The notes: generated by a model from the sequence alone, not told the origin. A stretch of 64,000 bases of DNA from Thermoleophilia bacterium UBA6103 (GCA_002423545.1 DIWP01000001.1:25171-89170); one strand, 5' to 3'. Positions 7,640 through 53,865 are shown, numbered from the stretch's first letter. Numbers and translations: made by a program.

Positions 7640-7812
7640 GGCTCGCTCGGTTTTCTGACTTCCGGTCGATTGCCTGGCCGTCGCTGCCTTCCCGGGCCTC
7701 TGCCCAGTGGCTCTCCTAAAGGAGACCGCGACGGTCGCGACCGGTCACAGCGGCGGGACCGTGCCGGAGTTGCACCGACTTCCCGTTGGGCGCTACAGCC
7801 GCGCGCCATCGG
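7640..7812 (-). ncRNA. cobalamin (B12) riboswitch
   Basis: Minus-strand RNA reads ...GUAGCGCCcaacGGGAAgucGGUGcaAcUCCggcaCGGUCCCGCCGCUGUGAccgg ... GCCACUGggcagaggcccGGGAAGGCagcgacggccaggcaaucgACCGGAAGUCAGAAAACCgaGC. This matches the conserved core (GGGAA..GGUG.A.UCC...CGGUCCCGCC.CUGU.A), the GCCACUG element and a B12-box-like AGUCAGaaaACC. It lies directly upstream of the ECF/DUF4430 operon. Confidence 0.75.
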
Positions 7813-7918
7813 TAGATGAACGAGTGCATGCTAGCGCAGCGAGCAGGGTGTGTCCAGTGGGAGATTTTCTCGTCTCAGCGGGATGCTGCGGTGATGAGCG
7901 GGGCGGTCGCTGCGCCGG

Positions 7919-9304: not shown

Positions 9305-9561
9305 GCTCCTCCCGTCCGTGGTCGAGGGTTGCTGCCACGCGGCCATCGCCGTCCGGCCTGCGGGCACCTGCATTCTAACGCCGGTCCGGGTCGCCCCGCC
9401 GGGCCGCCGAGGTACGCACTGCGGCGCGAGCCCTGTCCCATGCGCGGGATGCCCGCTCGCTCGTCTGCCGGTCGACGCGTGTGATATAGGTTGGAGCCAT
9501 CGTGCGCGGCTCCGGGTGTGGCGTGAGGGGCCTGTACGGCAAAGGGAGGTCGCCGGGCATC

Positions 9562-18902: not shown

Positions 18903-19125
18903 GACACCTGAGGATACCTCCGGCGCGGGAGCGCGGTCGCCCCGCCGACGTGATGGAAGGGGCCTGCCGCGGGCTTCCTGCGACGCCGCCCGCCGACGCG
19001 CCGCTGCCAAACGGAGTAGAGTGCCCGTCACATGCCTGCGGATCGCGCCGGCTGCATTGTCGGGGCGGATCCTGCCCTGCAGCCCGGCACCTGTCTCTGT
19101 GCGGCATGCAACCTTTTGTGACCTG

Positions 19126-19728
19126 ATGACGTCTAACATTCCAAGCACCGAAGACGGCGCTCCGCGTCTGCCGCGTACCGAACCACCCGAGCCCGGGCTG
19201 TTGCGGCGTGCCGCGGAGGGCGAGCGCGACGCGTGCCGACGTCTGGTGGAGACCCACCAGGATCTCGTCTTCGGGGTCGCCTGCAAGGTCCTCGGCGACC
19301 CCTGTGAGGCTGAGGACGCTGCCCAGGAGGCGTTCCTGCGGATGTTCCGGGCCTTGCCGGGCTATCGTGGGGAGTGTGCCTTCGCGACGTGGCTCTTCCG
19401 CATCGCCGCCAGCGCGGCGGTCGACCAGGGTCGGCGCCGACGACGGCTGAGCCGGGGGGTGGCCGATCCGACTGCCGCGCTGCCGCGTCTGGCCGCCGGT
19501 CCGGAGGTGGCCGTCGAGCAGACCGAGCGCTGCCGTGACGTGCTGCGGGCGATGGCGGAGCTGCGGCCGGCACTGCGCGGGCCGCTCGTCTTGCGGGAGG
19601 TGTACGGCTTGCCGTACGAGGAGATCGGCGTGCTTCTGGGTCGCCGGCTGGGAACGGTCAAGGCGGCCGTGCATCGTGGCCGCGCTGCCGTGGCAGCCGC
19701 GCTGGACGGCGGAGAGGTGAGTGGATGA
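19126..19728 (+). CDS. ECF-family RNA polymerase sigma factor (sigma-70 regions 2 and 4)
   Basis: Start MTSNIPSTEDG...; LLRRAAEGERDACRRLVETHQDLV (region 2.1/2.2) and YEEIGVLLGRRLGTVKAAVHRGR (region 4 HTH). Confidence 0.85.
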   Translation: MTSNIPSTEDGAPRLPRTEPPEPGLLRRAAEGERDACRRLVETHQDLVFGVACKVLGDPCEAEDAAQEAFLRMFRALPGYRGECAFATWLFRIAASAAVDQGRRRRRLSRGVADPTAALPRLAAGPEVAVEQTERCRDVLRAMAELRPALRGPLVLREVYGLPYEEIGVLLGRRLGTVKAAVHRGRAAVAAALDGGEVSG

Positions 19729-22676: not shown

Positions 22677-23432
22677 ATGAGCATGACGATCGAACTGGAC
22701 GGCACGGTGGCGCTGGTGACCGGCGCCGGTCGCGGCATCGGTCGCGAGATCGTCCTGGCGCTGGCCGCGGCCGGCGCAGACGTGGCGATCAACGACTTCG
22801 CCGGCGAAGAGGCCTGCGAGGAGGTCGCGCGGCTTGTGCGCGAGCTCGATCGCAAGGCGATCGTGGTCATGGCGGACGTCGGCGACGAAGAGGCGGTCGC
22901 GGCGATGGTCGAGCGGATCGAGCAGGAGCTGGGGCCGCTGGGAATCGTCGTCAACAACGCGGGCATCACGCGTGACAACGTCGTGATGCTCATCGACAGC
23001 GCCGACTTCGACGCCGTGATCCGCACACATCTGCGCGGGACGTTCCTGCTGAGCAAGGCGGCGGCACGCAAGATGTTCCGCCGCCGTAGCGGCGTCATCA
23101 TCAACATGTCGAGCGTGGTCGGACGTCGCGGCAACGCCGGGCAGGCCAACTACGCGGCCGCCAAGGCGGGCATCATCGGCCTCACCAAGTCGCTGGCCAA
23201 GGAGCTCGGCGCCCGCGGGGTGCGCGTCAACGCCATCGCTCCGGGGTACATCGACACGGCCATGACGCAGGCGCTCGGTGACGATGTGCGCGCAGCTATC
23301 GTCGAGGCCACTCCGCTGCGCGCCATCGGTACGCCGGGGGACGTCGCCGATGCCGTGGTCTTCCTGGCCTCGGACAGGGCGCGCTTCCTGACCGGGGTCG
23401 TGCTGCCGGTCGATGGGGGACTCGGCACATGA
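22677..23432 (+). CDS. fabG: 3-oxoacyl-ACP reductase FabG (SDR)
   Basis: TGAGRGIGREI, NNAGI, S...YAAAKAG catalytic triad context. Confidence 0.9.
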   Translation: MSMTIELDGTVALVTGAGRGIGREIVLALAAAGADVAINDFAGEEACEEVARLVRELDRKAIVVMADVGDEEAVAAMVERIEQELGPLGIVVNNAGITRDNVVMLIDSADFDAVIRTHLRGTFLLSKAAARKMFRRRSGVIINMSSVVGRRGNAGQANYAAAKAGIIGLTKSLAKELGARGVRVNAIAPGYIDTAMTQALGDDVRAAIVEATPLRAIGTPGDVADAVVFLASDRARFLTGVVLPVDGGLGT

Positions 23433-23508
23433 TGGTCATGGATGCTGCAGAGACGCAGGCAAAAAGTCGACTCGGCAGCTGTCGACGCAGAGTCCGGGAG
23501 GGTTCGAG

Positions 23509-24759
23509 ATGAGCGACACGCCGAGACGCGTGGTGGTCACCGGATCGGGGATGCTGTCCCCGCTGGGCCACGATGTGCCGTCAACGTGGCGACGCCTCAT
23601 CGCCGGAGAGAGCGGCATCACGTCGATCACCGGGTTCGACGCCTCGCGCATCGCATCGCGCGTCGCCGGCGAGGTCAAGGACTTCGACCCTGTGGAGCAT
23701 CTCGACAAGCGCGCCGCACGACGCATGGATCCCTACGCGCAGTTCGCCGTCTTCGCGGCACGTCAGGCGTTGACCGATGCCGGTCTGGAGATCACGCCTC
23801 AGGCGGCGCTGCGGACCGGGGCTGTCGTGGGCAGCGGCGTCGGCGGCCTGCTGACGTTTCAGGAGCAGACCCGCGTCCTGCTCGCGAAGGGGCCCGAGCG
23901 GGTCAATCCCCTCTTCATCCCGATGATGATCCCCAACATGGCCGCGGCGCACGTCTCGCTCGATCTGGGGCTCAAGGGTCCGGTCACCGCGGTGTGTACC
24001 GCGTGCGCGGCGGGATCCAACGCCATCGGCGACGCCTTCGAGATCATCCGGCGCGGGGCCGCCGACGTCATGCTGGCCGGCGGCAGCGAGGCGGCGGTCA
24101 ACGAGACCGGCGTGGCCGCCTTCGCCGCCATGCGGGCGCTGAGCACGCGCAACGACGCGCCGGAAGAGGCCTCGCGTCCGTTCGACGCCGGCCGCGACGG
24201 ATTCGTCATAGGCGAGGGCGCCGGCATCCTGGTGCTGGAGGAGCTGGAGCACGCCCGCGCTCGCGGCGCCCGCATCGTCGCCGAGGTGGTGGGGTACGGC
24301 ATGAGCGCCGACGCGTTCCACCTCACCCTGCCCGACGAGACCGGCGAGGCCCAGGCGCGGGCCATGACGCTCGCCCTCGAGCAGGCCGGTCTTGCGCCGG
24401 CCGACGTCGACTACGTGAACGCCCACGGCACGGCGACCATCTCCGGTGACATCGCCGAGACACGGGCCGTCAAGCTCGCGTTCGGAGAGTATGCCGCACG
24501 CGTGCCGGTCTCGTCGACGAAATCGATGACCGGCCACCTTCTCGGTGGCGCCGGCGCCATCGAGGCGGTCTTCTGCATCCGTACGATCACCGACGGCGTC
24601 ATCCCGCCGACCACCAACCTGACCGATCCCGATCCCGAGTGCGACCTCGACTACGTGCCCAACGAAGCCAGGAAGGCTGACGTACGCGTCGCCATGTCCA
24701 ACTCGTTCGGCTTCGGCGGTCACGACATCTCGGTCATCTTCAGGCGCTTCGAGGAGTGA
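23509..24759 (+). CDS. fabF: 3-oxoacyl-ACP synthase II FabF
   Basis: Start MSDTPRRVVVTGSG with GGGAGGG RBS. Active-site Cys (AVCTACAAGSNAIG), HGTAT, GHLLGGAG. Confidence 0.9.
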   Translation: MSDTPRRVVVTGSGMLSPLGHDVPSTWRRLIAGESGITSITGFDASRIASRVAGEVKDFDPVEHLDKRAARRMDPYAQFAVFAARQALTDAGLEITPQAALRTGAVVGSGVGGLLTFQEQTRVLLAKGPERVNPLFIPMMIPNMAAAHVSLDLGLKGPVTAVCTACAAGSNAIGDAFEIIRRGAADVMLAGGSEAAVNETGVAAFAAMRALSTRNDAPEEASRPFDAGRDGFVIGEGAGILVLEELEHARARGARIVAEVVGYGMSADAFHLTLPDETGEAQARAMTLALEQAGLAPADVDYVNAHGTATISGDIAETRAVKLAFGEYAARVPVSSTKSMTGHLLGGAGAIEAVFCIRTITDGVIPPTTNLTDPDPECDLDYVPNEARKADVRVAMSNSFGFGGHDISVIFRRFEE

Positions 24760-25646
24760 CAGTGAGCGCCTGCACGATGAGAGTCGGCCGACCTCTCGCC
24801 GGGACGGAGGCGTCGTGACGCCGGTGGAGGTCCAGATCGAGTCGCGTAACGGTGCGCAGGCGCCGTCCGGCTGGTGCTGTCCCGAATGCGGCGCATTGAC
24901 AGAGCGCGGGGAGTGGCGGGCCCGATCCTGCGTGTGCCCGGCGTGCGGTCACCACGCGCGGATCGGTGCCCGCGACCGCATCGCTCAGCTTGCCGACCCG
25001 GGCAGCTTCTCAGAGGAGTGGTCTCACCTCCGGACGCTCGATCCGCTGCAGTTCGTGGATCTCGAGGCCTACCCGGAGAGGACGCGCACGGCTCAGGCAG
25101 CCACCGGCCTCACCGAGGCCATCGTCGCCGGCCGGGCGCGGATCGAGAACGTGGCCTGCGTACTGGCCGTCATGGACTTCGGCTTCATGGGCGGCAGCAT
25201 GGGCAGCGTGGTGGGCGAGCGCTTCTTCCGCGCCGCCGAGGCGGCCGTCGCCGATCGAGTGCCGCTGGTGGCCGTCTGCAGCTCCGGCGGCGCCCGCATG
25301 CAGGAGGGTGTCCTGTCGCTCATGCAGATGGCCAAGACCACGCTGGCCGTCGACATGCTCAACGAGACCCGCACGCCGTACGTCGCGGTGCTGGTCGACC
25401 CCTGTACCGGCGGCGTCGTGGCAAGCTTCGCCACGCTGGCCGACATCTGCGTCGCCGAGCCGGGTGCGCGCCTCTACTTTTCGGGGCCGCGCGTGATCAA
25501 GGAGACAACGCGGGAAGAGCTGCCGGATGGCTTCAGCAGCGCCGAGCGCAACATGGCGCTCGGTCATCTCGATGCCGTGGTCCCGCGTGCCGAGCTGCGC
25601 GGTCGGCTTGCCTCGTACCTGCGACTGCTGAAGGGAGGTGCACGAG

Positions 25647-26735
<1,089 letters not shown>

Positions 26736-41305: not shown

Positions 41306-43021
41306 TCAGCTCCGCCGGCCGCGTCGCCGGCGGTGCCCGCGGCGGTTGTCGCGGATGGCCTGGCGGGCGGCCTGCCAGCCGGGGATGCCGCTGACCCCGC
41401 CGCCGCCGTGCGCTCCCGCCGAGCCGTTGTAGAGTCCGGTGACCGGTGTGCGGTAGTCGGCGTAGCCGGCTGCCGGACGCATATGGAAGAGCTGGTCGAC
41501 CGAGAGCTCGCCGCCGTAGACGTTGCCGCCGACCAGTCCCAGCTCGCGCTCGAGCTCCCACGGTCCGATCACCTGGCGGGCGAGGACGGCGTTCGGCAGG
41601 TTCGGCGCCATCTCGCCGAGGGCGGCGATGACGCGGTCGGCAAAGGCCTCGACGTCGTCGCGATGCGGCTCACGGTGCCACTCGTGCGGCACCCACTGCG
41701 AGTAGATCGACATGCAGTGGAGTCCCTCAGGCATGAGCGTGTCGTCGGAGACAGACGGGATCGTCACGTCTGCGATGGGATGCTCGGCGGGGCGCCCGGC
41801 GGTAGCGTCGTCGAACGCCGCCTGGACGTACGCTGGTGAGACTGCCAGCTCGATCGAGCCGCGGTGGTACTCTGCCGCGACGTGACTCGCATCGCCACGG
41901 CCGGGGCCTCCGGCGTCCGCCGGCACGCCGCAGGGCGCGCCGGAGAAGCGCGGCAGCTCGGCGATCGCAAGGTTGATCTTGACCGCTCCGCCGCGACACT
42001 TGAAGCGCCGGATGTCTTCGACGAAGTCCGGTGGCAGCGTCGCCGGGTCCAGCAGTCGGAGGAAGGTGAGCCTGGGGTGGACGGTGCTCACCACCACCGG
42101 TGCCCGCAGCTCGCTGCCGTCGGCGAGGACGACGCCGGTGACACGCTCTGAGATCGTACCGATGCGCATGACTTCGGCACCGGTGCGTACCTCGGCTCCA
42201 CCAGCCTCGGCGGCGCGGCGACAGGCAGCAGCCAGACCGCCCATACCGCCACGGGCGAATCCCCAGCCGCCGACATGCCCGTCGCCCGGGTCGCCCATGG
42301 AGAGGTGCAGGAGGACATACGCGGTCCCCGGGGTGTCTGGTCCCGCCCAGGCGCCGACCGCGGCCGTCATCGCCATGAGCGCCTTGAGCTCCTCACTCTC
42401 GAACCAGTCGTCGAGGATCTCATTGATGCTGGCCGTGAAGAGTCGTGTGACGTCGGCCACCCCGCGGACCCCGAGCCTGCGGGCCCGCCAGGCGATCTCC
42501 AGCGTGCCGGCCAGGTCGCTCGGCTTCAGCGAGCCCAGGCACGGCGGTATCTGCGTGAAGATCGGCCAGACGACGTCGGCGATCTGCCCCAGCCATTCCT
42601 CCCAGCGAGCGTAGGCCTCGGCGTCACGACGCGAGACACGCGCGATGCTCGGGTAGCTGCGCTCGGGATCCTCGCTGAGCATCAGACAGCGCCCGTCGGG
42701 GAACGGCACCAAGTAGGGCCCCATGGGGTGGATGCGCAGGCCGTGACGGTGGAGGTCCAGGTCGCGGATGATGCGTTGCGGCATCAGGCCGGCTACGTAG
42801 GAGTACGTGTTGACGCGCCAGTCCGGGTGCTCGGGCCAGGGGGACGACGTGTCGGTACAGCCACCGACGCGCTCACGGCGCTCCAGAACGAGGACTCTGG
42901 CGCCGGCCCCGGCCAGCTTGGCGGCGCAGATCAGCCCGTTGTGGCCGCCACCGATGACGATGACGTCGTACTGATCGCGGGGCACGTGGCCTCCCTCAGT
43001 CGGCCGACCTGTCGTCGCCAC
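41306..43021 (-). CDS. FAD/NAD(P)-dependent oxidoreductase (phytoene-desaturase / amine-oxidase superfamily)
   Basis: N-terminal YDVIVIGGGHNGLICAAKLAGAGARVLVLERRERVGG dinucleotide-binding motif; 571 aa. Confidence 0.8.
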   Translation of the reverse strand: MATTGRPTEGGHVPRDQYDVIVIGGGHNGLICAAKLAGAGARVLVLERRERVGGCTDTSSPWPEHPDWRVNTYSYVAGLMPQRIIRDLDLHRHGLRIHPMGPYLVPFPDGRCLMLSEDPERSYPSIARVSRRDAEAYARWEEWLGQIADVVWPIFTQIPPCLGSLKPSDLAGTLEIAWRARRLGVRGVADVTRLFTASINEILDDWFESEELKALMAMTAAVGAWAGPDTPGTAYVLLHLSMGDPGDGHVGGWGFARGGMGGLAAACRRAAEAGGAEVRTGAEVMRIGTISERVTGVVLADGSELRAPVVVSTVHPRLTFLRLLDPATLPPDFVEDIRRFKCRGGAVKINLAIAELPRFSGAPCGVPADAGGPGRGDASHVAAEYHRGSIELAVSPAYVQAAFDDATAGRPAEHPIADVTIPSVSDDTLMPEGLHCMSIYSQWVPHEWHREPHRDDVEAFADRVIAALGEMAPNLPNAVLARQVIGPWELERELGLVGGNVYGGELSVDQLFHMRPAAGYADYRTPVTGLYNGSAGAHGGGGVSGIPGWQAARQAIRDNRRGHRRRRGRRS

Positions 43022-43188
43022 GGTCGCAGCCTGGTCCGCCCGGCACGTGCGTGTGCTGTCGCTCAGCAGGCTACTTCGTAGGCTAGACAGCGGGCGGACT
43101 GTCCGTCAAGGGTGCCCTGAGCGCTCTGGTGGTCCGCGACAGCCTGGCCGGCGGTCTCGGGGCAGCGTGGGGCATCCGGCCGAACGTG

Positions 43189-44400
43189 TCAGCCGTGGCG
43201 GAACTCCCCGAGTCGGCGGTAGGCGGTCTCGGTGAGCAGATCGCGGATGCCGGCGAGCTTGTCGGAGGTGGACGGTGCCAGCTGCAGACCGGGGAATTCG
43301 GGGACCGCGCGGCCGCCCAGTCGGCGCAGCCACGTCCGGCCACGCAGCACCGGCCGCTTGACACGATACGTTGCGGATTGCGAGGCGACCATCTCCTCAG
43401 GTGAGGCCTCCATCAGCGTGAGGCGTGCGGGGGCAAGCCGCTCGATCAGGTCATAGCCGACGGAGGTCCGGGCGATCAGGTCCGAGACTCCCGGGGACCC
43501 GTAGAAGCGCTCCAGCCACGTGTCGCCGAGTGCGATGTCGGCCGGCTCCACCAGGGCGTCTGCGCAGGTGCGACAACGCGGCTGGATCCAGGCGGCGACG
43601 TAGTGGTCGTAGTAGTCGGCAAAGGACGCCGTGTGCAGGGCGCCGGAGCGTGTGTGGAGGCGCAGCTCGCCGGGCCAGTCCGGGCCGCGGTAGCCCACCA
43701 GGGTCAGCTCGGCGGGGTCGACGCCGATGCGGCGAGCCGCGACGCAGGTGGCACGCGGCAGCATGTTGAAGCCGCAGAAGACGCCGACGGTGAGCGGCAC
43801 GCGTTCACGCAGCACTTGGCTGCGTCGCTGCGCAAGCCGCAGTCCCTGGATGTGGCACGGGAGCCCGACGAAGGCGTAGCGGCCGGGCGAGGCGCGCACC
43901 TCACGCAGCGCCTCGCCGACGGCGACCATGCTGTACTTGGAGCCGCGCAGGGCCGCGACCTCGGCGGTCGAGCGAGCGATCGCCGGCTCGGCCGCCAGTG
44001 GCGTGGCGCGGCTCATGCGGACGCCGATGACGGCATCGACGTCGCCCTGTTCCAGCGCGCCCTGCAGCAGTGCCGTCGCGATGCCCCCTGAGGCGCCGGC
44101 GAAGCGCGTGTCAGGATCGCTGGCCCACCCGTACCACAGCCCGCGATACGGACCGAGGAAGTCGCGGAACGGGGCGTCGCCGTTCCGCTCACGCCACCAC
44201 GCCCCGGAGCCGTAGTCGAATCCGTCGCCGGGGCAGACCTCGTCGCAGACGCCGCAGTCGGTGCAGCGTGCGTGATCGATCTCCGGCAGCCAGCCGTCGC
44301 GCAGCGTCCAGCGCATGCGCAGGGCATCCTGAGGGCACACGCCTGCACAGGTGCCGCACTGGGTGCAGAGCCCGTCGCGGACCACGTGCTCGATCGTCAT
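43189..44400 (-). CDS. coenzyme F420 hydrogenase/dehydrogenase beta-subunit-like (FrhB/FdhB family) Fe-S flavoprotein
   Basis: N-terminal 2x[4Fe-4S] ferredoxin motifs (CTQCGTCAGVCP, CTDCGVCDEVCP) followed by an FrhB-like domain (GASGGIATALL). Confidence 0.7.
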   Translation of the reverse strand: MTIEHVVRDGLCTQCGTCAGVCPQDALRMRWTLRDGWLPEIDHARCTDCGVCDEVCPGDGFDYGSGAWWRERNGDAPFRDFLGPYRGLWYGWASDPDTRFAGASGGIATALLQGALEQGDVDAVIGVRMSRATPLAAEPAIARSTAEVAALRGSKYSMVAVGEALREVRASPGRYAFVGLPCHIQGLRLAQRRSQVLRERVPLTVGVFCGFNMLPRATCVAARRIGVDPAELTLVGYRGPDWPGELRLHTRSGALHTASFADYYDHYVAAWIQPRCRTCADALVEPADIALGDTWLERFYGSPGVSDLIARTSVGYDLIERLAPARLTLMEASPEEMVASQSATYRVKRPVLRGRTWLRRLGGRAVPEFPGLQLAPSTSDKLAGIRDLLTETAYRRLGEFRHG

Positions 44401-44649
44401 GACATGTCACTCCCGGGTCGGGCCACCTGCCTCCCGTCCATGTGAGCGGAGCCTATCGCAGGTGGCCGACGGCGGGCACGCCGGCTCAGGGCGTCGGTCC
44501 TGGGGACGCTCGACCGGCTACCCGCCGTCAGCTATCGTTCGGCCGTCGTGCAGATCGGTGCCCCCGGCCGGTCGACCGGCCCGACAGCGGCGAGCGGACG
44601 GACGCTTCAGCACCGACCATTCTGCAGAGACCGACCCCGGAGCGTGCAG

Positions 44650-45036
44650 ATGAGCGTCACCGCCGCCGTCATCATGATCGCGATCGGGCTGGCCATGGCC
44701 GGGATCTGGACCAGGGACATCGTCGCCGGCGCCGAGGTCGACCGCTCGGCGGGCCTGTTCCGAGCCCGTGAAGCCGGCACCGACTCTCTCTTCTGGCTGC
44801 ACTGGCTGGCCGAGTACGGCACCGCGGCGGCGCTGATGACGGCCGCTGCCGCGCTGCTGGCCGGTGCCGGGTGGGGCCGGCCGCTCGCCTTCCTGGCTAT
44901 CGGCGCGCTGGTCTACTCAGCGACGAACGCCCTTGGCTGGGCCTTCGGACGCCGTGAACGGTACCCGTATGCTGCCCCCATGCTCGTCAGTCTCGTCGGG
45001 GCGATCGCCGTCCTGGTCCTGGTGCTCGCATCCTGA
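44650..45036 (+). CDS. hypothetical membrane protein (4 TM)
   Basis: MSVTAAVIMIAIGLAMAGIW...; hydrophobic, good GC3. Confidence 0.4.
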   Translation: MSVTAAVIMIAIGLAMAGIWTRDIVAGAEVDRSAGLFRAREAGTDSLFWLHWLAEYGTAAALMTAAAALLAGAGWGRPLAFLAIGALVYSATNALGWAFGRRERYPYAAPMLVSLVGAIAVLVLVLAS

Positions 45037-45081
45037 CGGCGTGATCATGGCGATCGACGATGGATCGTCTGTGGCGTCGCT

Positions 45082-45552
45082 TCAAAGCCCGCAGGACAGC
45101 AGCCCCTGCCGCTCGAGGTAGCGCTGGTGGTAGTCCTCGGCGGGCCACCAGGGGCCGGCCGGCACGATCTCGGTGACGATCGGCCGTCTGAAGGCGTCTG
45201 AAGCCTCGAGACGGTCCTTGACGGCGCGTGCCGCCGCCTCCTGCTCCGGTGAGTGGAAGAAGATGACGGAGCGGTACTGGGAGCCGATGTCGGGGCCCTG
45301 CCGGTCCTTCGTGGTCGGATCGTGCAGAGCGAAGAACGTCTCGACGAGCCGTTCGTAGCTCACCGCGTCGGGGTCGAACTCCACCTTGACCGCTTCGGCG
45401 TGGCCCGTCTTGCTGCGGCAGACCTGACGGTACGTCGGTTCCTCCTTGGTGCCACCGGTGTAGCCGACCTCCGTGTCCATGACGCCGGGGACGGTGCGGA
45501 AGCGCGCTTCGACGCCCCAGAAGCACCCGGCGGCGAACGTAGCGATAGCCAT
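45082..45552 (-). CDS. msrA: peptide-methionine (S)-S-oxide reductase MsrA
   Basis: [18 protein letters not shown] (GCFWG active site), YHQRYL. Confidence 0.9.
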
Positions 45553-45829
45553 CTGCGGCCTTTCGTTGCTGTCGAGTCCAGTCAGTCCGTGGTTGCGTGC
45601 GCCCAAATGCTCTCAAGGTGCGTGTTCCCGCGAACGGCCGCTGCCAAGCCTGCCGATCCCGCATCGCCGGCGCGCGGCGTGGATGGAGCGTGCCGAGGGG
45701 TGTACAGTGTGCGGCGTCGCGTGATGTGGAAGTCGGGCGTCGCCCAGTGTCTGGGCGGGACCGGCTCACGCGGCCGGCCGGTCCGCACAGGACGAAACGG
45801 TCGCTCAGCACAGGAGACGCGAGCCCTCC

Positions 45830-47656
45830 ATGCCCAGCAGCCGACGACGCACCATCCCGGCACCGCTCGCCACGATCGGCTCACTCAAGGCTGCTCCCGG
45901 CCAGCTGCGGGTGCCGCCGGCGGCCAACCTGTTCCTCATGCGCTACCTGCGCTCCTTCCCCGTCCGCAGCGTCGGCGGCAACTGGATCGTCCACTCGCAT
46001 CTGCCGCCGCTCAACAGTCCGGCCTACCGGCGCTTCGTCTCGCTCCACCTGGTGCAGCGGGTCGCCGGTCCATCTCACGCGCAGGTCGGCCTCACCAACG
46101 CCTGTCCGCAGGACTGTGTCTACTGTTACAACAAGCAGCGTCGCGGCCGGTCGCTGGACACCGCCACGATCCTGGACGTCATCGACAGGCTGCAGGACAT
46201 GGGCGTGGTCTGGCTCGGCTTCACCGGCGGCGAGCCGCTGCTCAATCGCGACATCGTGCGCATCACCGAGCGCGCCGCTCGAGGCTGTGCCGTCAAGCTG
46301 TTCACCACCGGGTGCGGGCTCACCACACAGCTGGCGCACGACCTGGTCTCGGCCGGACTCTTCTCGGCGGCCGTCAGCCTCGACAGCCGGGACGCGGCCG
46401 AGCACGACGCGGGTCGCCGCTACCCCGGAGCCTTCGCCGAGGCGTTGCGCGCCATCGAGACCATGAAGCGGACCGAGGGCCTTCATGTGAGCGTCTCGGC
46501 GGTATTCTCGCGGCAGGCCATCGCCGGCGGAGAGGTCGAGCCCTTTCTCGCGTTCCTGGAGGACCTGGGGGTCGACGAGGCATGGCTCAGCGAGGTGAAG
46601 CCTTCGGTGCCCGCCTGCTGCGATGCGACGCAGGTCATCGGTACGCAGGAGCACCGCGACCTCTGCGCGCTGCAAGACAGCTGGAACCGCCGCCGGCCCT
46701 CATCTCTGACCGTCAACTACCTGGGGCACTTCGAGGACGGCTCGACGTTCGGCTGCAACGCCGGGGTCAAGATGGTCTACGTCGACGCGTTCGGAGAGGT
46801 CAGTCCCTGTGTTTTCACACCCATGACGTTCGGCAACGTCACGGAACGGCCGCTGGAGGAGCTCATCGAGGAGATGCGCGGCCACTTCTCCCCCGGCGAC
46901 AGTTGCTGGATCAACGAGCACTACGATGTCCTGCACGAGCTGGCCGGCGATGCGATGATGCTCGATGCGCGACTGAGCGCGGCCGCGGCCGAACGGGCCG
47001 GCGCGGTGTCGCCCCCGGCGTTCGACCGGATCCTCTACGGAAGCGGCGGGGCGGCGGCCGTCGCCCGAGCGGGATCCAAGAGCGGGCGGTCGCCCTGGGG
47101 GGCGCGCTCGACCACGGCGGATGGCGAAGCGTCGGGCGGCGGGCCGGCGAACGGGCGAGGAAGGGGACGGTCGATGACGGCGATCGACAGGGGCGGAGGC
47201 GCCGGCGCGGCCGGCGACCGAGATGCCGCCGGCGCCGACGGCCGGGAACGGCTCATCAGGCTGACCGGTCATCTTCTGGCGGGCACGTTCGCCGCCGTCG
47301 GACTCATCTTCCTGATCCTGCCCGGACGGGTGCTGGCGGCGTTCAACCGGCTTTCGACCGGCATCGGTCTGCCGGCCGCGCCGACTCGGGGCTATGCCTT
47401 CTATCTCGCGCTGGCGGTGGCGTACATGTACGTCGTCACGCTGCTGGCCTGGATGATGGCTCGTCGCCCGTCCGAGCGCGTCTATCCGTGGCTGCTGGTG
47501 CACGCCAAGGCAGCCAGCTCGCTGCTGTCGCTGCTGCTGTTCGCGGTCGATCAGCAGTACCTCATCTACATCGCCAACTTCGTCGTCGACGGCGCCATCG
47601 CCCTGCTGGTCGCCGGTCTGTGTCTGCGACGGGGCGCGCACCGCGATCCGGCATGA
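45830..47656 (+). CDS. radical SAM / SPASM-domain enzyme with C-terminal 4-TM membrane domain
   Basis: GLTNACPQDCVYCYN (CxxxCxxC), GFTGGEPLL, downstream Cys-rich SPASM-like region (PACCD..., FGCNAG..., SPCVF). Residues ~440-608 form 4 TM helices in the same frame. AGGAGA RBS 11 nt upstream of the ATG. Confidence 0.75.
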   Translation: MPSSRRRTIPAPLATIGSLKAAPGQLRVPPAANLFLMRYLRSFPVRSVGGNWIVHSHLPPLNSPAYRRFVSLHLVQRVAGPSHAQVGLTNACPQDCVYCYNKQRRGRSLDTATILDVIDRLQDMGVVWLGFTGGEPLLNRDIVRITERAARGCAVKLFTTGCGLTTQLAHDLVSAGLFSAAVSLDSRDAAEHDAGRRYPGAFAEALRAIETMKRTEGLHVSVSAVFSRQAIAGGEVEPFLAFLEDLGVDEAWLSEVKPSVPACCDATQVIGTQEHRDLCALQDSWNRRRPSSLTVNYLGHFEDGSTFGCNAGVKMVYVDAFGEVSPCVFTPMTFGNVTERPLEELIEEMRGHFSPGDSCWINEHYDVLHELAGDAMMLDARLSAAAAERAGAVSPPAFDRILYGSGGAAAVARAGSKSGRSPWGARSTTADGEASGGGPANGRGRGRSMTAIDRGGGAGAAGDRDAAGADGRERLIRLTGHLLAGTFAAVGLIFLILPGRVLAAFNRLSTGIGLPAAPTRGYAFYLALAVAYMYVVTLLAWMMARRPSERVYPWLLVHAKAASSLLSLLLFAVDQQYLIYIANFVVDGAIALLVAGLCLRRGAHRDPA

Positions 47657-49605
47657 GTGTCCGGCTGGCCGCCCTCGAACGCTGGACCCCCGGCGCACTG
47701 AGCCGGCGCACGCTCGACGAGCTCACAGAGCGGGTGGCGGGCGCATTCGGCGTGCCGCCGCCGGCATGGCCGTCCCGTCGCATGGAAGCGCGCCTGGAGG
47801 AGTTCGCGCGCTTCACGGCGACCGCCGCCGGCTGTACCCGGGAGACTACGGCCGGGGCGACGGCCGGACGCCTGCGGCTGGCAGCCTGTGGGCTCGGCGC
47901 CGATCTGCGCCGTCGGTTGGGCGTGCGGAGTCCGGACGAGGCGCGGCGGGCGCTCCAGCTGCTCTATCGCGAGCTCGGCATCGCGCTGCGCGCCGGGGCC
48001 GACGGGACAGTGACCGTGAGTCGCTGCCGGTTCAGTCGCCACTACTCGCCGGGAGCCTGCCGGCTCATGTGCGCCGTCGACGAGGGGATCGCCGCCGGGC
48101 TCACCGGCGGATGGCGGCTCAGCTTCGACGACCGTCTCACGGAGGGCGCCGCCGCCTGCCGCGGACGTCTGGAGCCACCGCTCCCGGACGCGCACGAGCT
48201 CACCGTTCCGCCGCCCGAGCCCGTCGCAGAACAGCCGATGCCGGGCGGTCCGCCGCCGGCTTCGCGCGCTCGGCGGGGCAGGCCGGTGCGCGCTGTGGTC
48301 GTGGGCAGCGGCGCCGGCGGCGCCACCATGGCTCGCGAGCTCGCCGGGCTCGACGGCGTGCAGGTCACGGTGCTCGAGGCCGGCCGGCGCTTCCGCCCGT
48401 TCACGCTGGACCGTGAGCCGCTGGAACGCGTGCGGTCCAGCGGCCTCTTCTTCGACGAGCGGCTGATCACGGCGCTGTTTCCGGCGATGCGGGTGCAGCG
48501 CGCCGCCGACGGACTGGTGCTGGTCCGCGGCGTGGCTACCGGTGGTACCACGACGCTGGCGACCGGGAACGCGATGCGGCTCGATGCCGGCTTGTCGACC
48601 CTCGGGATCGATCTCACTTCCGAGTACCGGGCGCTGGAGACGGAGCTGGGTGTCACATCGGCCCATCGGGGACGCTGGCGGCCGAGCACTCAGGTCCTCT
48701 GGGACGCCTGTCGACAGGCCGGCCTCGCTCCGCAGCCGACGCCCAAGATGGTCGACTACCGCCGATGCGTGCGCTGCGGTCGCTGCGTGCTCGGCTGCCG
48801 GACCGGGGCGCGCTGGGATGCGCGACGCTTCCTCGACGACGCGTTGGCGCGTGGCGCCACCGTGCTCACCGGAGCGCGGGTGGAGCGGCTGCAGCCGGCC
48901 GGCGACCGCAGCGGCCGGGCCGGCGGTGTCCTCGTGCGCCGGCACGGCCGTCGCGAGCTGGTGTCGGCCGATGTCATCGTGCTGGCGGCCGGTGGTCTGG
49001 GCACGCCCGCCATCCTGGCGCGGTCGGGCGTCGCCACGGAGAACCGCCTGTTCGTCGACCCGGTCCTGTGCGTCGCCGGGCCGTGGCCCGGCGCCGATCA
49101 GGACCGTGAGGTCCCGATGCCGTTCGTCGTCGAGCTCGAGGGCAGCATCGTCTCGCCGTACTTCGATCACCTCAGCTTCTTCTTCGATCGGCGCTGGCGG
49201 CGAGAAGCGTCCGGCCTCGCGTCGCTGATGATCAAGCTGGCGGACAGCGAGGTGGGCGATGTCGGTCGCGGCTCAGTGGCCCGCGGCGGCGTCCGCAAGG
49301 CTCTCACGCCGCGCGATCGCCGACGCCTGAAGGTCGCCGTCGATGCCTGCCGGGATGTCCTCGCGATCGCCGGTATCCCGCCTGAAGAGACCTTTCTCGG
49401 TACCCTGAACGCCGGTCACCCCGGCGGTATGGTGCCACTCACCTCGGAGTCCGTAGCGACCATGCACCCGCGGTCGCTGCCGGCGAACGTGTTCGTCGCC
49501 GACGCCTCACTGCTCCCCGAGTCATTGGGAGCGGCCCCGATGCTGACCATCATGGCGCTGGCCCGTCGCCTGGCCGGGGTGCTGCGCGAGCGCGATGTCG
49601 TCTGA
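47653..49605 (+). CDS. two-domain flavoprotein: N-terminal Cys-containing (V4R-like?) domain + GMC-type FAD oxidoreductase
   Basis: ATGA overlap with the rSAM stop. N-domain ~180 aa with CRFSRHYSPGACRLMCAVDEG. Then VVVGSGAGGATMARELAG (FAD GxGxxG), YRRCVRCGRCVLGCRTGARWDA and C-terminal GTLNAGHPGGMVPL (GMC-like). The V4R assignment is tentative. Confidence 0.7.
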   Translation: MSVRLAALERWTPGALSRRTLDELTERVAGAFGVPPPAWPSRRMEARLEEFARFTATAAGCTRETTAGATAGRLRLAACGLGADLRRRLGVRSPDEARRALQLLYRELGIALRAGADGTVTVSRCRFSRHYSPGACRLMCAVDEGIAAGLTGGWRLSFDDRLTEGAAACRGRLEPPLPDAHELTVPPPEPVAEQPMPGGPPPASRARRGRPVRAVVVGSGAGGATMARELAGLDGVQVTVLEAGRRFRPFTLDREPLERVRSSGLFFDERLITALFPAMRVQRAADGLVLVRGVATGGTTTLATGNAMRLDAGLSTLGIDLTSEYRALETELGVTSAHRGRWRPSTQVLWDACRQAGLAPQPTPKMVDYRRCVRCGRCVLGCRTGARWDARRFLDDALARGATVLTGARVERLQPAGDRSGRAGGVLVRRHGRRELVSADVIVLAAGGLGTPAILARSGVATENRLFVDPVLCVAGPWPGADQDREVPMPFVVELEGSIVSPYFDHLSFFFDRRWRREASGLASLMIKLADSEVGDVGRGSVARGGVRKALTPRDRRRLKVAVDACRDVLAIAGIPPEETFLGTLNAGHPGGMVPLTSESVATMHPRSLPANVFVADASLLPESLGAAPMLTIMALARRLAGVLRERDVV

Positions 49606-51055
49606 CCTGGGACCCGGGGCGAGCGAGGCGCCGTCCTCGGGCGTCTCGCGCTACCGCTTCGTCATCCTCGCGGTCGTCTGGCTGTCCTACGTGATGGTCT
49701 TTCTCGCCAGGCTGAGCGTCGGCCCCCTGTCGCCGTACCTCAAGTCCTCGTTCGAACTGTCGCTGGCGCAGGTGGGGGGTCTCATGGGGGCGACCGCCGT
49801 CGCCTACGCGCCGACGCTCATCGTCGCCGGATGGCTCGTAGATCGCGTCGGGGTACGCCGCATGCTCGTGGCCGGCACGTTCATCACCGGGATCTGCGTG
49901 GGTGCGATGTCCCTGGCGCCGTCGTATGCGTGGCTGCTGGCGTTGCTGGCGATCTCGGGGTTGGGCGCCGGATGCATCTACCCTTGTGCGGTCAAGGCGG
50001 TGATGACGTGGTTCCCGCTGCGCGAGCGCGCCACCGCGATCGGCTTCAATCAGACGGGGGTGAACCTGAGCGGCATCGTCGGCGCCGCGACTCTGCCGAC
50101 CGTGGCCGAGCGTTACGGCTGGCAGTACGGCTTCCTGGCCGTCGGTGCCCTCGGGCTCGTCATCTGCCTGCTGGCGGCGGTGCTCTACCGGGACCGCGAG
50201 CAGCCGCTGCCGGCCCTGGGACCGGTGGCTCCGCGGCGGGGGGCCACGCCGGCCGGCGGGTCGCAGGTGACGGCACCGGCCGGCCGGTCGCTGTCGCCAC
50301 CGGGCGCGGGCGCACAGACGATCGCTCGCGACACGTGGACGGCCGGCAGCTCCGCCTCCTTCGACTGTCCGCTGACGGCGGACGGCCCGGCCGCCGGATC
50401 GCCTGGATCGACCTCCGGTTCGCAGTCCGTCACGCGCCGGCTTCTCGCCTCCCGGGACATCTGGATCCTCGGCGTGGCCGGACTCTTCCTCGGCGTCGTC
50501 GAGTTCTCCGGTCTGGCGCATCTGGTCGTCTATCTGCAGGAAGAGTGGCTGTACACGGCGGTAGCGGCCGGCGGCCTGCTGGCGCTCTGTGAGGCAGCCG
50601 GCGGCGTCGCCAAGCCGGCCAGCGGCGTCATCAGCGACCGTCTGCTGGGCGGACGCCGTCGCCCGGCGCTGCTGGTGCTTTGCGCGCTGGCGGCGGCAAG
50701 CTGCCTGGCGCTCGCCCTGGCCGGTCCGGCGCTCGGCTGGCTGCTCTACGTCGTACTGGCGCTGTTCGGCGTCGCCGCGGTCGGCTGGGGCGGCCTCTTC
50801 GGCACGACTGCCGGGGAGCTGGGTGGCCGGCCGGCGGCCGGCGTCGCGGCCGGCCTCACCGCCGCCATCGTCAACGTCGGCATCCTCTTCGGACCTCCGG
50901 TCTTCGGCGCCATCGTCGACGCCACAGGCAGCTACGGGACGGCCTGGCTGGCCATGACCGTTGCCGCAGTGGCGGCGCTCGTCTGCATCGCTCTCGTCCG
51001 CGAGCCGAGCTGTCACACCATGAGCCTCTCGCCGGAGAGCCTCAGCGAGACTTGA
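49595..51055 (+). CDS. MFS transporter
   Basis: 12-TM MFS, overlaps the preceding gene by 11 nt; [25 protein letters not shown] motifs. Confidence 0.8.
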
Positions 51056-51182
51056 GCCGTGGTGTGCATGTCCCGCGGACCGGGCACACCATGAGCACGG
51101 AGCACCGGCGCAGGACGCCGGGATGCATGGGAGACGAGCGCGTCGGCGGCCGACGTCGCCGCGCGGCGAGAAAGGCACTATC

Positions 51183-51713
51183 GTGATCGGCAGGAAGGCA
51201 CGCAGGAGCGGCGACCGGGAGCGGCGAGAGGACTTGCCCAGTGCGGAGGAGCTGCGACAGAGGCTCACGGAGCTGCAGTACGCGGTGACCCAGCAGGACG
51301 GTACCGAGCCGCCGTTCGACAACGAGTACTGGGACGAGCATCACGACGGCATCTACGTCGACGTGGTGTCCGGCGAGCCGCTCTTCAGCTCGCACGACAA
51401 GTACGACTCCGGCACCGGCTGGCCGAGCTTCTCGCGACCGGTCCGTCCGCAGGCGGTCACCACTCGCACCGACTTCAAGCTGCTGTACCCACGCACCGAG
51501 GTCCGCAGCGCCGACGCCGATTCGCATCTGGGGCACCTGTTCCGCGACGGTCCGCAGCCGTCCGGCGAGCGCTACTGCATGAACTCCGCCGCCTTGCGGT
51601 TCATCCCCAGGGAGCACCTGGAGCGCGAAGGCTACGGCGAATACCTGGCTCTGTTCGAGCGTGTGGCGGGTGACGATGCCGATCGCTGTGAGGCCGGCGA
51701 CGAGGATCGCTGA
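51183..51713 (+). CDS. msrB: peptide-methionine (R)-S-oxide reductase MsrB
   Basis: GTG start (alternative ATG at 51123). [57 protein letters not shown] (CxxC...RxCxN SelR signature). Confidence 0.85.
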
Positions 51714-51778
51714 ACCGCCAGGCAACGGTCTCTCGACCGGCCCGGCCCCTCGCGAGCGCGCGACCCGAAGGGCGCCGC

Positions 51779-52149
51779 CTACAGCGCCGCGCCGACGATC
51801 AGCAGGACGGCCGCGGACGTGTCGGTGGTCGCCGGCGGGATCGAGCGCGGTCCGGAGGGGGGCCGGTGGGACGCGAGCCTGACGATTGCAGAGAGCAGCA
51901 GGAGGGCGGCCGAGACGTAGCAGGCCGTCCGTACCGCGCCCGGCTCGACGCCGTCGGGCAGCACGAGCACCACGATCAGGATAGCGAGGAACGACCCGAC
52001 AAGGATCTCCCCGAGCAGGGCCCGCGTCAGAGTCGCGCGGTTGCCCGGCGTCAGGACGCCGAAGCGTTGCAGAGAGGCGGGCAGGCGGACCAGTCGGAGC
52101 AGCGCCGAGAGTGCGAGCAGGCCGGCGGCGATGTAGACGAGGAGAGGCA
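51779..52149 (-). CDS. small hypothetical membrane protein (3-4 TM)
   Basis: Probable GTG start after GAGGTGG; LLVYIAAGLLALSALL..., ILVGSFLAILIVVLVL..., YVSAALLLLSAIV... Confidence 0.35.
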
Positions 52150-52530: not shown

Positions 52531-53865
52531 TCAGTGAGAAGGCGACGTTGCGCGCTCCCTGGCGGCGGCCTTCGGGTCTCCGGAGGGTCCGGATGGGCCG
52601 CCGTCCGGACCATGGGGCGGTGCGGAGCCGACGCGGTGGTCCTCTGGCGATCGTGCCTGCATGCCGCGCACGCTCGGCACCAGGAACACCCAGCCGGCCG
52701 CCAGCACGCCGAGTCCGGCGGCCAGTGCGCAGGCCGTACGCACGCCGACGGCGTCGGCGAGGGGACCGGCGATCGCCAGGCCGGCCGGCCAGAGCGCCAT
52801 CGATGCCATCCAATCCCAGGCGGTGACGCGGGAGAGGGCTTCTTCGGGGATCTCCCGCTGCAAGGTGGTCATCCAGACGGCGACCAGCACACCGACGGCG
52901 ACGCCGCGGCCGGCCTGCACCAGCACGAGCGGCAGGGCGCCACCGCCGACCGCGAGCACGAACGGCGCCGCGGCGGCCGTGGCGCCGGTCAGAGCCACCA
53001 CGAGCATGGGGTGACGGGGACTGTAGCGCAGGGCGACGATGCTGCCGACGATCATGCCGGCGCTGAGCGCGGCCATCGCGAGGCCCCAGGCGCCGGCGCC
53101 CTGGCCGAGCGCGCGCAGCGCCAGCGGGCCGAGCACCTGGAACGGCGCCACCACGATGAACAGCACCAGCATGGCGCGCAGCAGCATGACCCAGAGCCAC
53201 GTGCGTGAACGGACTTCGCGCCAGCCGGCCAGGAGCTCGCCGACGAAGCTGCGCTGGACTGTGACGCGCGCACGGGGCGGCACGCGCAGACTGAGCAGGA
53301 AGCCGATGCTGGCGAGGAACGTCCCGGCGTCAAGAGCGATCGCCACGCCGGGGCCGACGCCCGCCACCATCAGGCCGGCCAGGGCGGGGCCGACGAACCA
53401 GCCGGCGTTCTCGGAGAGGCCCAGGAGCGCGTTGGCCTGCTGCAGCTTGACGGCCGGCACGATCTGCGGGACCAGGCCGCCCAGCGCCGGGCGAAAGAAC
53501 GCCTCGGCGGCTCCGTAGGCGGCGCCGACCAGCGCCAGGCTCCAGATCTGTGCCCAGCCGCCGATCAGCAGCGCGGCCGCCGTGGCGACGACGAGCATCC
53601 GGACGACGTCGGAGGCGATCATGACCCACTCGCGACGCAGACGGTCGGCCCAGACGCCGCCGACCAGCGCGAAGGCGACCAGCCCGAAGCTCTGGGCTGC
53701 CAGAACCAGGCCGAGGTCGGTCGCCGAGCCGGTCAGGTCCAGCACGGCGTAGGTGATGGCGATCGGCGTGATGCCGTCGCCGATCACCGATACCGACTGA
53801 CCGAGGAACAGGCGCAGGAAGTCGCGCTCGCGGAGGACCGCAAGGTCGGAGAGCCACCGTCTCAC
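52531..53865 (-). CDS. MFS transporter (EntS-like; paralog of 13909-15162)
   Basis: GTG start; LRERDFLRLFLGQSVSVIGDGI, GGVWADRLRRE; 12 TM. Confidence 0.8.
   Translation of the reverse strand: MRRWLSDLAVLRERDFLRLFLGQSVSVIGDGITPIAITYAVLDLTGSATDLGLVLAAQSFGLVAFALVGGVWADRLRREWVMIASDVVRMLVVATAAALLIGGWAQIWSLALVGAAYGAAEAFFRPALGGLVPQIVPAVKLQQANALLGLSENAGWFVGPALAGLMVAGVGPGVAIALDAGTFLASIGFLLSLRVPPRARVTVQRSFVGELLAGWREVRSRTWLWVMLLRAMLVLFIVVAPFQVLGPLALRALGQGAGAWGLAMAALSAGMIVGSIVALRYSPRHPMLVVALTGATAAAAPFVLAVGGGALPLVLVQAGRGVAVGVLVAVWMTTLQREIPEEALSRVTAWDWMASMALWPAGLAIAGPLADAVGVRTACALAAGLGVLAAGWVFLVPSVRGMQARSPEDHRVGSAPPHGPDGGPSGPSGDPKAAARERATSPSH

Follow-up and report, generated by a model that had tools for sequence, protein, structure and literature searches.

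A doubly fused copy of a widespread four-module radical SAM and GMC flavoprotein cassette in Thermoleophilia bacterium UBA6103

Organization of the locus

The subject of this report is a pair of overlapping genes, encoding a radical S-adenosylmethionine (SAM) enzyme and a flavoprotein, that lie in a 64,000-nucleotide stretch of DNA from Thermoleophilia bacterium UBA6103 (GCA_002423545.1 DIWP01000001.1:25171-89170). This whole stretch is referred to as the window; positions are counted from its first letter, and its G+C content is about 70% throughout. The original prediction, made from the sequence alone, described at 45830-51055 a compact operon of three translationally coupled genes, coding for a radical SAM (rSAM) enzyme with a transmembrane (TM) tail, a Cys-containing domain joined to a GMC-type flavin adenine dinucleotide (FAD) oxidoreductase, and an MFS transporter, with msrA and msrB on either side. 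The three genes, the overlaps between them and the msr flanks are all present as described:

45082-45606, minus strand: msrA, divergent neighbour (PF01625, 216.8 bits)
45830-47656, plus strand: gene 1, rSAM enzyme with TM domain, 608 amino acids (aa)
47653-49605, plus strand: gene 2, Cys domain plus GMC flavoprotein, 650 aa
49595-51055, plus strand: gene 3, MFS transporter, 486 aa (PF07690 MFS_1, 173.7 bits, cut-off 33.4)
51123-51713, plus strand: msrB, downstream neighbour (PF01641, 157.6 bits)

Genes 1 and 2 are joined by an ATGA overlap, the ATG of which is the start of gene 2, and genes 2 and 3 overlap by 11 nt. The frame of gene 2 is open for a further 2.4 kb upstream through gene 1, forming a mechanical open reading frame (ORF) of 1450 aa (45253-49605, plus strand); we regard this ORF as a high-GC artefact, the start at 47653 being backed by the N-termini of homologues. 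Simple scans of 45000-52000 found neither a sigma-70-like promoter nor an intrinsic terminator, and the 223-nt gap between msrA and gene 1 (45607-45829) contains no credible short ORF for a precursor peptide.

A widespread four-module cassette

With gene 1 as the query, more than 1000 homologous proteins were obtained. The best 120 all have E values below 1e-132, and most of these are proteins of about 400 aa that match only the rSAM part of gene 1, with 55-63% identity. The genes encoding them stand in a recurrent row, comprising the rSAM gene (~400 aa), a ~140-aa gene and a ~180-aa gene, both without a Pfam match, and a ~430-aa GMC-like gene; we refer to the four products, in that order, as modules A, B, C and D. 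The TM tail of gene 1 is homologous to the separate ~140-aa genes of loci L001 and L003 (49-54% identity by blastp), and the N-terminal part of gene 2 is homologous to the separate ~180-aa genes (33-47% identity by blastp). The two window genes divide as follows:

45830-46084, plus strand: N-terminal domain of module A, aa 1-85 of gene 1, with invariant H55-S-H57-L-P59 and P81-x-H83-A-Q85
46085-47065, plus strand: rSAM core and twitch-like auxiliary domain of module A, aa 86-412
46103-46126, plus strand: CxxxCxxC motif of module A, C92/C96/C99, invariant
within 46754-46906, plus strand: auxiliary Cys residues of module A, C309/C327/C359, invariant
47066-47224, plus strand: A-B linker, aa 413-465, low-complexity and rich in G, A and R
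47225-47656, plus strand: module B, four-TM domain, aa 466-608 of gene 1
47653-48192, plus strand: module C, alpha/beta domain, aa 1-180 of gene 2
48193-48273, plus strand: C-D linker, aa 181-207, disordered and Pro-rich, predicted local distance difference test score (pLDDT) below 50
48274-49605, plus strand: module D, GMC-fold FAD dehydrogenase
48298-48321, plus strand: FAD motif GxGxxG of module D, invariant
48766-48798, plus strand: iron-sulphur (Fe-S) motif of module D, C372xxC375xxC378xxxC382, with a Fer4 match on the motif
49417-49419, plus strand: H589 of module D, at the GMC catalytic His position within NAGHPGG, invariant

Several patterns are apparent when the loci are compared. In the locus set, which consists of the first 86 loci fetched (L087, L088 and L089 were added later), modules A to D have the same order and the same strand wherever the contig continues, with A present in 86, B in 85, C in 83 and D in 80. 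Four separate genes are found in 75 of the 78 complete loci; among the others, L005 has the A-B fusion only, L068 has the C-D fusion only, and both occur together in the window only. C-D fusions (~630 aa) are frequent in the protein databases, where B-C fusions also exist (P0321, 328 aa, and P0327, 313 aa), and the Clostridia carry an independent A-B fusion. Because every adjacent pair (A-B, B-C and C-D) is fused somewhere, the four modules are likely to form a single physical complex at the cytoplasmic face of the membrane. What is known of the topology fits such an arrangement: A has to be in the cytoplasm, the TM segments of B are even in number, C comes after B in the B-C fusions, and D, also cytoplasmic, has no signal peptide where it forms a protein by itself.

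Genes 1 and 2 of the window (45830-49605) are a rare, doubly fused copy, with both the A-B and the C-D fusion, of a widespread and self-contained four-module cassette. We are highly confident of the division into four modules, of the autonomy of the cassette, and of the placing of the msr and MFS genes outside it. The neighbourhood comparison thus replaces the three-gene unit of the original prediction with the four modules A-B-C-D. One further protein from the databases, P0369 (315 aa), looks chimeric, with the first ~180 residues of A joined directly to the last ~130 of C, and may have arisen as an artefact of assembly or by deletion, or may represent a pseudogene.

The cassette is distributed broadly. 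A scan of one genome per GTDB species yielded at least 397 relatives confirmed by tblastn, at a lenient threshold that may have let in some other rSAM proteins. The 80 best of these share 49-69% identity and come from Thermoleophilia and other Actinomycetota, Aminicenantes, Bacteroidota, Ignavibacteriota, KSB1, Calditrichota, Kryptoniota, Zixibacteria, Fermentibacteria, WOR-3, Spirochaetes, Dehalococcoidia, Anaerolineae, Coprothermobacterota and many Clostridia, the last including Dehalobacter sp. 4CP, Candidatus Formimonas warabiya DCMF, Dethiobacter alkaliphilus and Syntrophomonas. The carriers belong to dozens of bacterial lineages, most of them anaerobic. A search of 1.84 billion representatives gave 446 representative clusters of the C family at E<=1e-3 and, at the stricter limit of E<=1e-10, 318 of them; most are stand-alone proteins of about 180 aa. 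A literature search found no description of this cassette and we found no curated equivalog; it appears to be undescribed, as had been suggested at the outset.

Genomic context of the cassette

All-against-all clustering of the flanking ORFs in 83 loci revealed no fifth conserved gene, the next cluster after A to D being present in 7 loci and looking antisense. In a Pfam census of 120 genes that directly precede A or follow D, no family was enriched, the maximum being phosphofructokinase (4 of 120). Similarly, the small ORFs (of 18-100 aa) that lie up to 900 nt from the ends of more than 80 cassettes include no family that occurs in more than four closely related loci, and the few that are shared are antisense to a conserved neighbour. 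The reported absence of a precursor-peptide gene therefore holds both for 45607-45829 and, as far as conserved small ORFs are concerned, for the surroundings of the other cassettes. Rfam searches covering the window and 19 loci gave no riboswitch ahead of the cassette. Cyclic di-GMP-I riboswitches lie near, not directly before, the Dehalobacter and Calditrichales cassettes (L072 4613-4704 and L064 14430-14515, both plus strand), and a tandem glycine riboswitch lies ~2.7 kb downstream of the Formimonas cassette (L083 13169-13603, plus strand); all are probably unrelated to the cassette.

The MFS gene occurs in none of the 86 loci (tblastn) and is present only in the ~90%-identical loci L087 and L088. 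Its inclusion in the module by the original prediction is not upheld, and on these comparisons we regard it as a lineage-specific addition, though it is translationally coupled in the window. It is closest to models of the anion:cation symporter and organophosphate type, remains under every equivalog cut-off, and may move the substrate or the product of the cassette to which it is appended. The msr genes, which had been read as a functional hint, fare no better. The msrA gene is found in one of the 86 loci (L007, the nearest Thermoleophilia genome) and in the close relatives L087 and L088, and msrB likewise in one (L039, ~4.5 kb downstream of D) and directly after the MFS gene in L087; we regard both as bystanders, whose association with the cassette is a matter of this genus-level lineage. 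The complete order, with CrtO-like, FrhB-like and msrA genes, then A-B, C-D, MFS and msrB, is kept only in L087 and L088.

The 59%-identical actinobacterial locus L089 has four separate cassette genes without MFS or msr genes, and we note that an MMPL gene (a lipid-exporter family; L089 4566-6893, plus strand) lies immediately upstream on the same strand. A tendency of Actinomycetota to add a transporter to the cassette is suggested by this gene and the MFS gene of the window, taken together.

The radical SAM module

Module A belongs to the radical SAM superfamily, as seen from its PF04055 Radical_SAM match (66.5 bits, cut-off 29.5) and its CxxxCxxC motif. It lies outside the well-characterised families, as the original prediction supposed, with every NCBIfam equivalog far under its cut-off: the highest matches are AhbD, NirJ2, NirJ, AhbC and NirJ1, at 57-87 bits against cut-offs of 500-650 (e.g. 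AhbD 87/500, NirJ 72/515), and PqqE (79/381), MoaA (63/284), MftC (TIGR03962, 67.9/265), BlsE (61/400) and anSME are likewise not reached. Sequence matches in the PDB are limited to BlsE (the best, E 1.9e-14), PqqE and SkfB. The AlphaFold model is a confident one (pLDDT 86), with values below 50 at residues 413-464 in the A-B linker, which is missing where A and B are separate genes. The nearest solved folds are SkfB, PqqE, SuiB, BlsE, MoaA, DesII, anSME and viperin, at 14-23% identity, with BtrN and AbmM also among the fold matches.

Conservation within A was read from alignments of 19 and 41 homologues from different phyla. The N-terminal extension predicted ahead of CxxxCxxC is real, and forms a strongly conserved, family-specific domain of ~85 aa (pLDDT ~90) with HSHLPP and PSHAQ motifs; a Pfam search with it gave no match, PqqD/RRE (RiPP recognition element) included. 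A B12-binding domain was also not found in module A by Pfam. The SPASM-like region is a more qualified case. There is a partial PF13186 SPASM match (26.3 bits, cut-off 21.5, profile positions 1-44 of 67), but a full SPASM domain is not present: besides C92, C96 and C99, the only invariant Cys residues are C309 and C327 (in CX12GX4C) and C359 in the C-terminal domain, and the CX2CX5CX3C block of the second SPASM auxiliary cluster is absent from both alignments, such that A lacks the seven-Cys motif CX9-15GX4C ... CX2CX5CX3C ... C. With this block missing, the auxiliary domain is best described as twitch-like, with three Cys for one cluster, and the cluster probably has an iron site that is open or bound by a ligand other than Cys. 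One candidate for such a ligand is the invariant H300 (in YLGHFE), nine residues ahead of C309.

The membrane module

Module B consists of four TM helices plus an interfacial helix, the hydrophobic segments lying at residues 478-508, 521-544, 555-573 and 576-600 in the gene 1 frame. The original prediction was correct in placing four TM segments in the same frame as the rSAM enzyme, but not in taking the tail as an unusual feature of that enzyme, since it corresponds to what is normally a separate gene. A frameshift artefact as the source of the tail was considered and rejected, the same fusion being present in 90-94%-identical relatives from independent metagenomes, and an A-B fusion having arisen independently in Clostridia. 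Invariant residues (in gene 1 numbering where numbered) are F, G and F in TM1, Y532/M533 in TM2, K560 in TM3, and N583 and D587 in TM4; this buried polar set suggests a binding site and not a mere anchor. No significant relatives of B were found in Pfam, NCBIfam or the PDB, the search of the PDB with the B profile being empty.

The Cys domain

Module C is predicted to have five helices followed by a beta-beta-alpha-beta-beta unit (pLDDT >90). Residues C125, C136, D143, G145 and G149 are invariant, and R161, T163, G165 and C169 nearly so. Residues 1-180 of gene 2 have no Pfam match above threshold. There are weak matches to PF14196 ATC_hydrolase in 27 of 45 C members (best E 5.6e-5), and one member matches MetOD1; the scores of the window C (14.5 bits) and of the C of L005 (17.1 bits) are both below the PF14196 gathering score of 28.1. 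The recurrence of the weak matches argues for remote homology rather than family membership. In searches of the PDB the C profile returned only noise (E 0.26-0.93), a Thorarchaeota TRAPPC3 among it.

The MetOD1, V4R, HNOB and ATC-hydrolase domains are related to each other, and a three-Cys cluster is common to MetOD1, V4R (including the phenol sensors PoxR and MopR) and ATC hydrolase, as reported by Galperin et al. (PMC5847659). The weak but recurrent hits suggest that C is a 3-Cys domain, putatively ligand-binding, of this ATC-hydrolase/V4R/HNOB superfamily. The original, tentative description of a V4R-like Cys domain is thus appropriate at the superfamily level, but not as membership of the V4R family itself, with none of the 45 C modules matching PF02830 at E<=1.

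The FAD dehydrogenase module

The assignment of D as a GMC-like FAD oxidoreductase with a four-Cys motif is confirmed by Pfam, with GMC matches in gene 2 (PF00732 GMC_oxred_N, 83.9 bits; PF05199 GMC_oxred_C, 26.4 bits) in addition to Fer4. It has the characters of the GMC superfamily, namely the N and C domains, GxGxxG and a conserved C-terminal His; GxGxxG and H589 are invariant in 48 D sequences. MftG models do not reach their cut-offs against gene 2 (TIGR03970 36.9/387 and TIGR04542 48.3/400 bits). Proteins consisting of D only start directly with the FAD-binding fold, without a signal peptide. Sequence and profile searches of the PDB gave generic matches only for D.

The model of C plus D has a pLDDT of ~89. 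The top Foldseek matches of D are fructose dehydrogenase and the Burkholderia FAD-glucose dehydrogenase alpha subunit, and its best structural matches are sugar dehydrogenases and oxidases (7w2j, 8qve and 8grj). The CvrCgrCvlgC of D aligns to CcgnnnCmpiC of 6a2u_B/8hdd_A, from chain residue 212, and in the pairwise alignment C372, C378 and C382 fall on three glucose dehydrogenase Cys residues, which are its 3Fe-4S ligands. With the extra C375, D has a motif of the classic 4Fe-4S type.

Other features of the window

Beyond the cassette and its immediate neighbours, a CrtO-like FAD protein (NF045689, 241 bits, cut-off 1000) and an FrhB/FdhB-like protein with an N-terminal 2x[4Fe-4S] ferredoxin are encoded at 41306-44400 on the minus strand. 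This pair occupies the same position beside msrA in L087 (90% identical), as does the CrtO-like gene in L007. Between the FrhB-like gene and msrA is a putative ORF for a hydrophobic protein of 162 aa (44548-45036, plus strand) without Pfam or NCBIfam matches. A full-length cobalamin riboswitch (RF00174, 75.5 bits) is present at 7628-7820 on the minus strand, upstream of an ORF of 381 aa (6348-7493, minus strand) that has no Pfam match at E<=1e-5 and may be an unannotated B12-related gene. The window is also rich in exporters and other notable genes, encoding MMPL (9502-11826) and two MFS_3 exporters (13909-15162, plus strand, and 52531-53865, minus strand), a fused ABC exporter pair (15224-19286, minus strand), a FabF-like ketoacyl synthase (23413-24759) and AccA (25638-26735).

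Proposed function

We propose that the cassette encodes an autonomous, membrane-associated complex which modifies a membrane-resident or otherwise hydrophobic small molecule, and not a peptide, without the use of O2; we consider this to have about an even chance of being correct. Because no precursor peptide is found here or conserved elsewhere, a small molecule or lipid is a likelier substrate than a peptide that is synthesised ribosomally and modified post-translationally (RiPP), in agreement with the preference of the original prediction. In such a complex B and C would bind and present the substrate, and A would cleave SAM and abstract a hydrogen atom at an unactivated position to give a substrate radical, with its auxiliary cluster either binding the substrate or accepting the radical electron. 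D would oxidise a hydroxyl or similar group in a coupled two-electron step by means of FAD and the conserved His, and its Fe-S cluster would link it electronically to the clusters of A or to the membrane. The net outcome would be the O2-independent functionalisation of a lipid-like molecule. More specifically, and as a tentative idea that we think rather unlikely, this could be a widespread, hitherto unrecognised pathway for the radical functionalisation, independent of O2, of a core membrane lipid in bacteria of anaerobic sediments and digesters (in Aminicenantes, Bacteroidota, KSB1, Calditrichota, Dehalococcoidia, Clostridia and Thermoleophilia), which would, for example, add a keto or a hydroxy group to it, or make a branch or a cross-link.

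Several observations weigh against our proposal. The Asn that pairs with the catalytic His of GMC enzymes is not a conserved residue in D, being Ala in the window, and the GMC enzymes most similar to D oxidise sugars and not lipids. Both fold searches with the C+D model were dominated by D, leaving the fold of C unconfirmed. Electron flow between D and A is pure inference, and membrane association could serve for localisation only. The closest rSAM enzymes by sequence include the sugar-modifying BlsE and the tetrapyrrole-modifying AhbD/NirJ, so that a substrate of the sugar, glycolipid or tetrapyrrole kind is roughly as good a fit as a lipid of the acyl or isoprenoid kind. The genomic context provides no clue to a pathway, and no member of the cassette carries an informative annotation.

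Some of these same features can be read as signs of a different role for D or of a different substrate. It is possible, if unlikely, that D is solely an electron supply or sink for A, with a single chemical step catalysed by A, C acting as a carrier and B as an anchor. Enzymes of the rSAM class require a one-electron donor, the Fe-S site of D sits at the electron-relay 3Fe-4S position of the fructose and glucose dehydrogenases, and the loss of the Asn of the His/Asn pair would be in keeping with such a role; however, a generic flavodoxin or ferredoxin is normally enough for rSAM enzymes, GMC enzymes are not known to accept electrons from NAD(P)H, and the invariant His589 together with an intact substrate-domain fold points to a bound organic substrate. 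A sugar moiety as substrate, such as a lipid- or nucleotide-linked sugar or a glycolipid head group, seems quite unlikely to us, even though BlsE is the best PDB sequence match of A, DesII, BlsE, BtrN and AbmM are among its fold matches, and D is structurally closest to the sugar-oxidising enzymes named above. D would then oxidise a sugar hydroxyl in the manner of pyranose, fructose and C-glycoside oxidoreductases, A would perform a radical dehydration, deoxygenation, decarboxylation or epimerisation as do BlsE, DesII and BtrN, and the conserved Lys and Asp of the membrane subunit could bind a polyprenyl-phosphate head group. These similarities are at a generic superfamily level, as the BlsE score of 61 bits against 400 illustrates, and the census of 120 neighbours shows no enrichment of glycosyltransferase, sugar-nucleotide or polysaccharide genes beside the cassette.

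We find a tetrapyrrole of the haem, sirohaem or bilin type improbable as the substrate. This would make A an AhbD/NirJ-like enzyme that modifies side chains, C a BchJ/V4R-like tetrapyrrole carrier and D a dehydrogenase, and would fit with the position of the NirJ and Ahb families at the top of the NCBIfam list of A, and with the C superfamily containing haem-binding HNOB and V4R proteins tied to tetrapyrrole and bilin clusters; but the scores of 57-87 bits against 500-650 are about equal to those of PqqE or MoaA, the neighbours include no haem or cobalamin biosynthesis genes beyond 3 of 120 for B12-binding proteins, and the strictly conserved membrane subunit is left unexplained. We judge as distinctly improbable a RiPP or peptide-derived cofactor system of the mycofactocin or pyrroloquinoline quinone (PQQ) type with a precursor encoded elsewhere in the genome. 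Peptide maturation is a common role of enzymes of the rSAM-SPASM/twitch class, A is closest in structure to SkfB, PqqE and SuiB, and the pairing of rSAM and GMC proteins recalls MftC and MftG. Against this stand the lack of a precursor ORF in the window and of a conserved small ORF near more than 80 cassettes, an N-domain in A without a PqqD/RRE match, an auxiliary site of three Cys only in place of a full SPASM domain, MftC, MftG and PqqE models far under cut-off, and the absence of conserved peptidase or other mft or pqq genes nearby. Finally, a module tied to msrA and msrB and to thioether or sulfoxide chemistry, as the flanks had hinted, is essentially refuted by the comparative data and has only a very slim chance. 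Both genes do flank the cassette in the window and in 90%-identical relatives, msrA adjoins it in L007, and ATC hydrolase, the family nearest to C, cleaves a C-S bond; nevertheless each msr gene is in only one of the 86 loci, the synteny is limited to close relatives, and msrA is divergently transcribed.

Significance

The preservation of 50-60% identity and of a fixed gene order across many phyla indicates a strongly selected shared function, for a cassette in which B and C match no curated family significantly and A and D reach no named family. The combination of radical SAM chemistry with an Fe-S-bearing GMC dehydrogenase at the membrane was not found described in the literature. The system is compact, with four genes, or two in the window, and is a solid lead for experimental discovery; its carriers include cultivated or enriched strains, among them Dehalobacter sp. 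4CP, Candidatus Formimonas warabiya DCMF and Calditrichales MX18-03. The four genes lie within ~2.007-2.022 Mb of NZ_CP157399 in Dehalobacter sp. 4CP and within ~233-248 kb of NZ_CP017634 in Formimonas warabiya. If the core-lipid proposal were true, the cassette would be a possible genetic source of some of the orphan bacterial lipids of anoxic environments, and A would be the first of the rSAM enzymes to form an obligatory complex with a GMC flavoprotein of the Fe-S type, a carrier resembling V4R/ATC proteins and a dedicated membrane subunit. For annotation the locus is also a caution, in that its local msrA, msrB and MFS context is no safe guide to function.

Comparison with known systems

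The mycofactocin system, to which the cassette was originally compared, likewise pairs a SPASM/twitch-class rSAM enzyme (MftC) with a GMC flavoprotein (MftG). The pairing and the absence of mftB, mftD, mftE and mftF were correctly noted, but the analogy is superficial: the MftC and MftG cut-offs are missed, and neither the MftA precursor nor MftB (RRE), MftD, MftE or MftF was found at cassette loci. The cassette differs further in the Fe-S cluster of its D module, in its C partner and dedicated membrane subunit, and in occurring mainly in anaerobes outside the mycobacteria. Membership of either the mycofactocin or the PQQ system is rejected, with scores far below cut-offs and partner genes absent.

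Module D resembles the large subunit of Gluconobacter fructose dehydrogenase (FDH; 7w2j/8jej) and the alpha subunit of Burkholderia cepacia FAD-dependent glucose dehydrogenase (FAD-GDH; 6a2u/8grj), in which a Cys cluster lies by the FAD in the position seen in D. The FDH and FAD-GDH complexes are periplasmic, and contain a small subunit with a twin-arginine translocation (Tat) signal and a multi-haem cytochrome c subunit. In contrast, D has a fourth Cys (CxxCxxCxxxC), no signal peptide and an rSAM partner instead; neither a cytochrome c nor a small Tat-signal subunit is found beside the cassette, where the only conserved partners are A, B and C.

Module A shares with BlsE, BtrN, DesII, MoaA, SkfB and PqqE a partial TIM-barrel core and an auxiliary domain with CX12GX4C. 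Identity to these enzymes is 16-23% and the 85-aa HSHLPP N-domain was not found in them; A also differs from twitch and SPASM enzymes in having three auxiliary Cys only and an obligatory membrane partner. Module C has a three-Cys cluster like that of the ATC hydrolase/V4R/HNOB superfamily, together with its own conserved pattern and a fixed genomic context.

As functional analogues we propose Tes, Mss, Gms, GrsA/B, Cds and HpnH/J/P/R, which perform radical chemistry on inert membrane lipids, largely in anaerobes. A 2026 review of lipid-modifying rSAM enzymes, which also covers Gmm, Jaw5 and the ladderane enzymes, makes no mention of FAD, a GMC or other flavoprotein, or a V4R-like or small TM partner, and the newer archaeal lipid rSAM enzymes are B12-dependent. 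The solved Tes homologue was not among the sequence or fold matches of A, and Mss, Tes, Gms and Ted were rejected as relatives, having other domain sets, in several cases B12 dependence, and no FAD partner. The cassette belongs with the radical SAM systems for small-molecule modification, and its member in the window is an unusually compact, doubly fused one.

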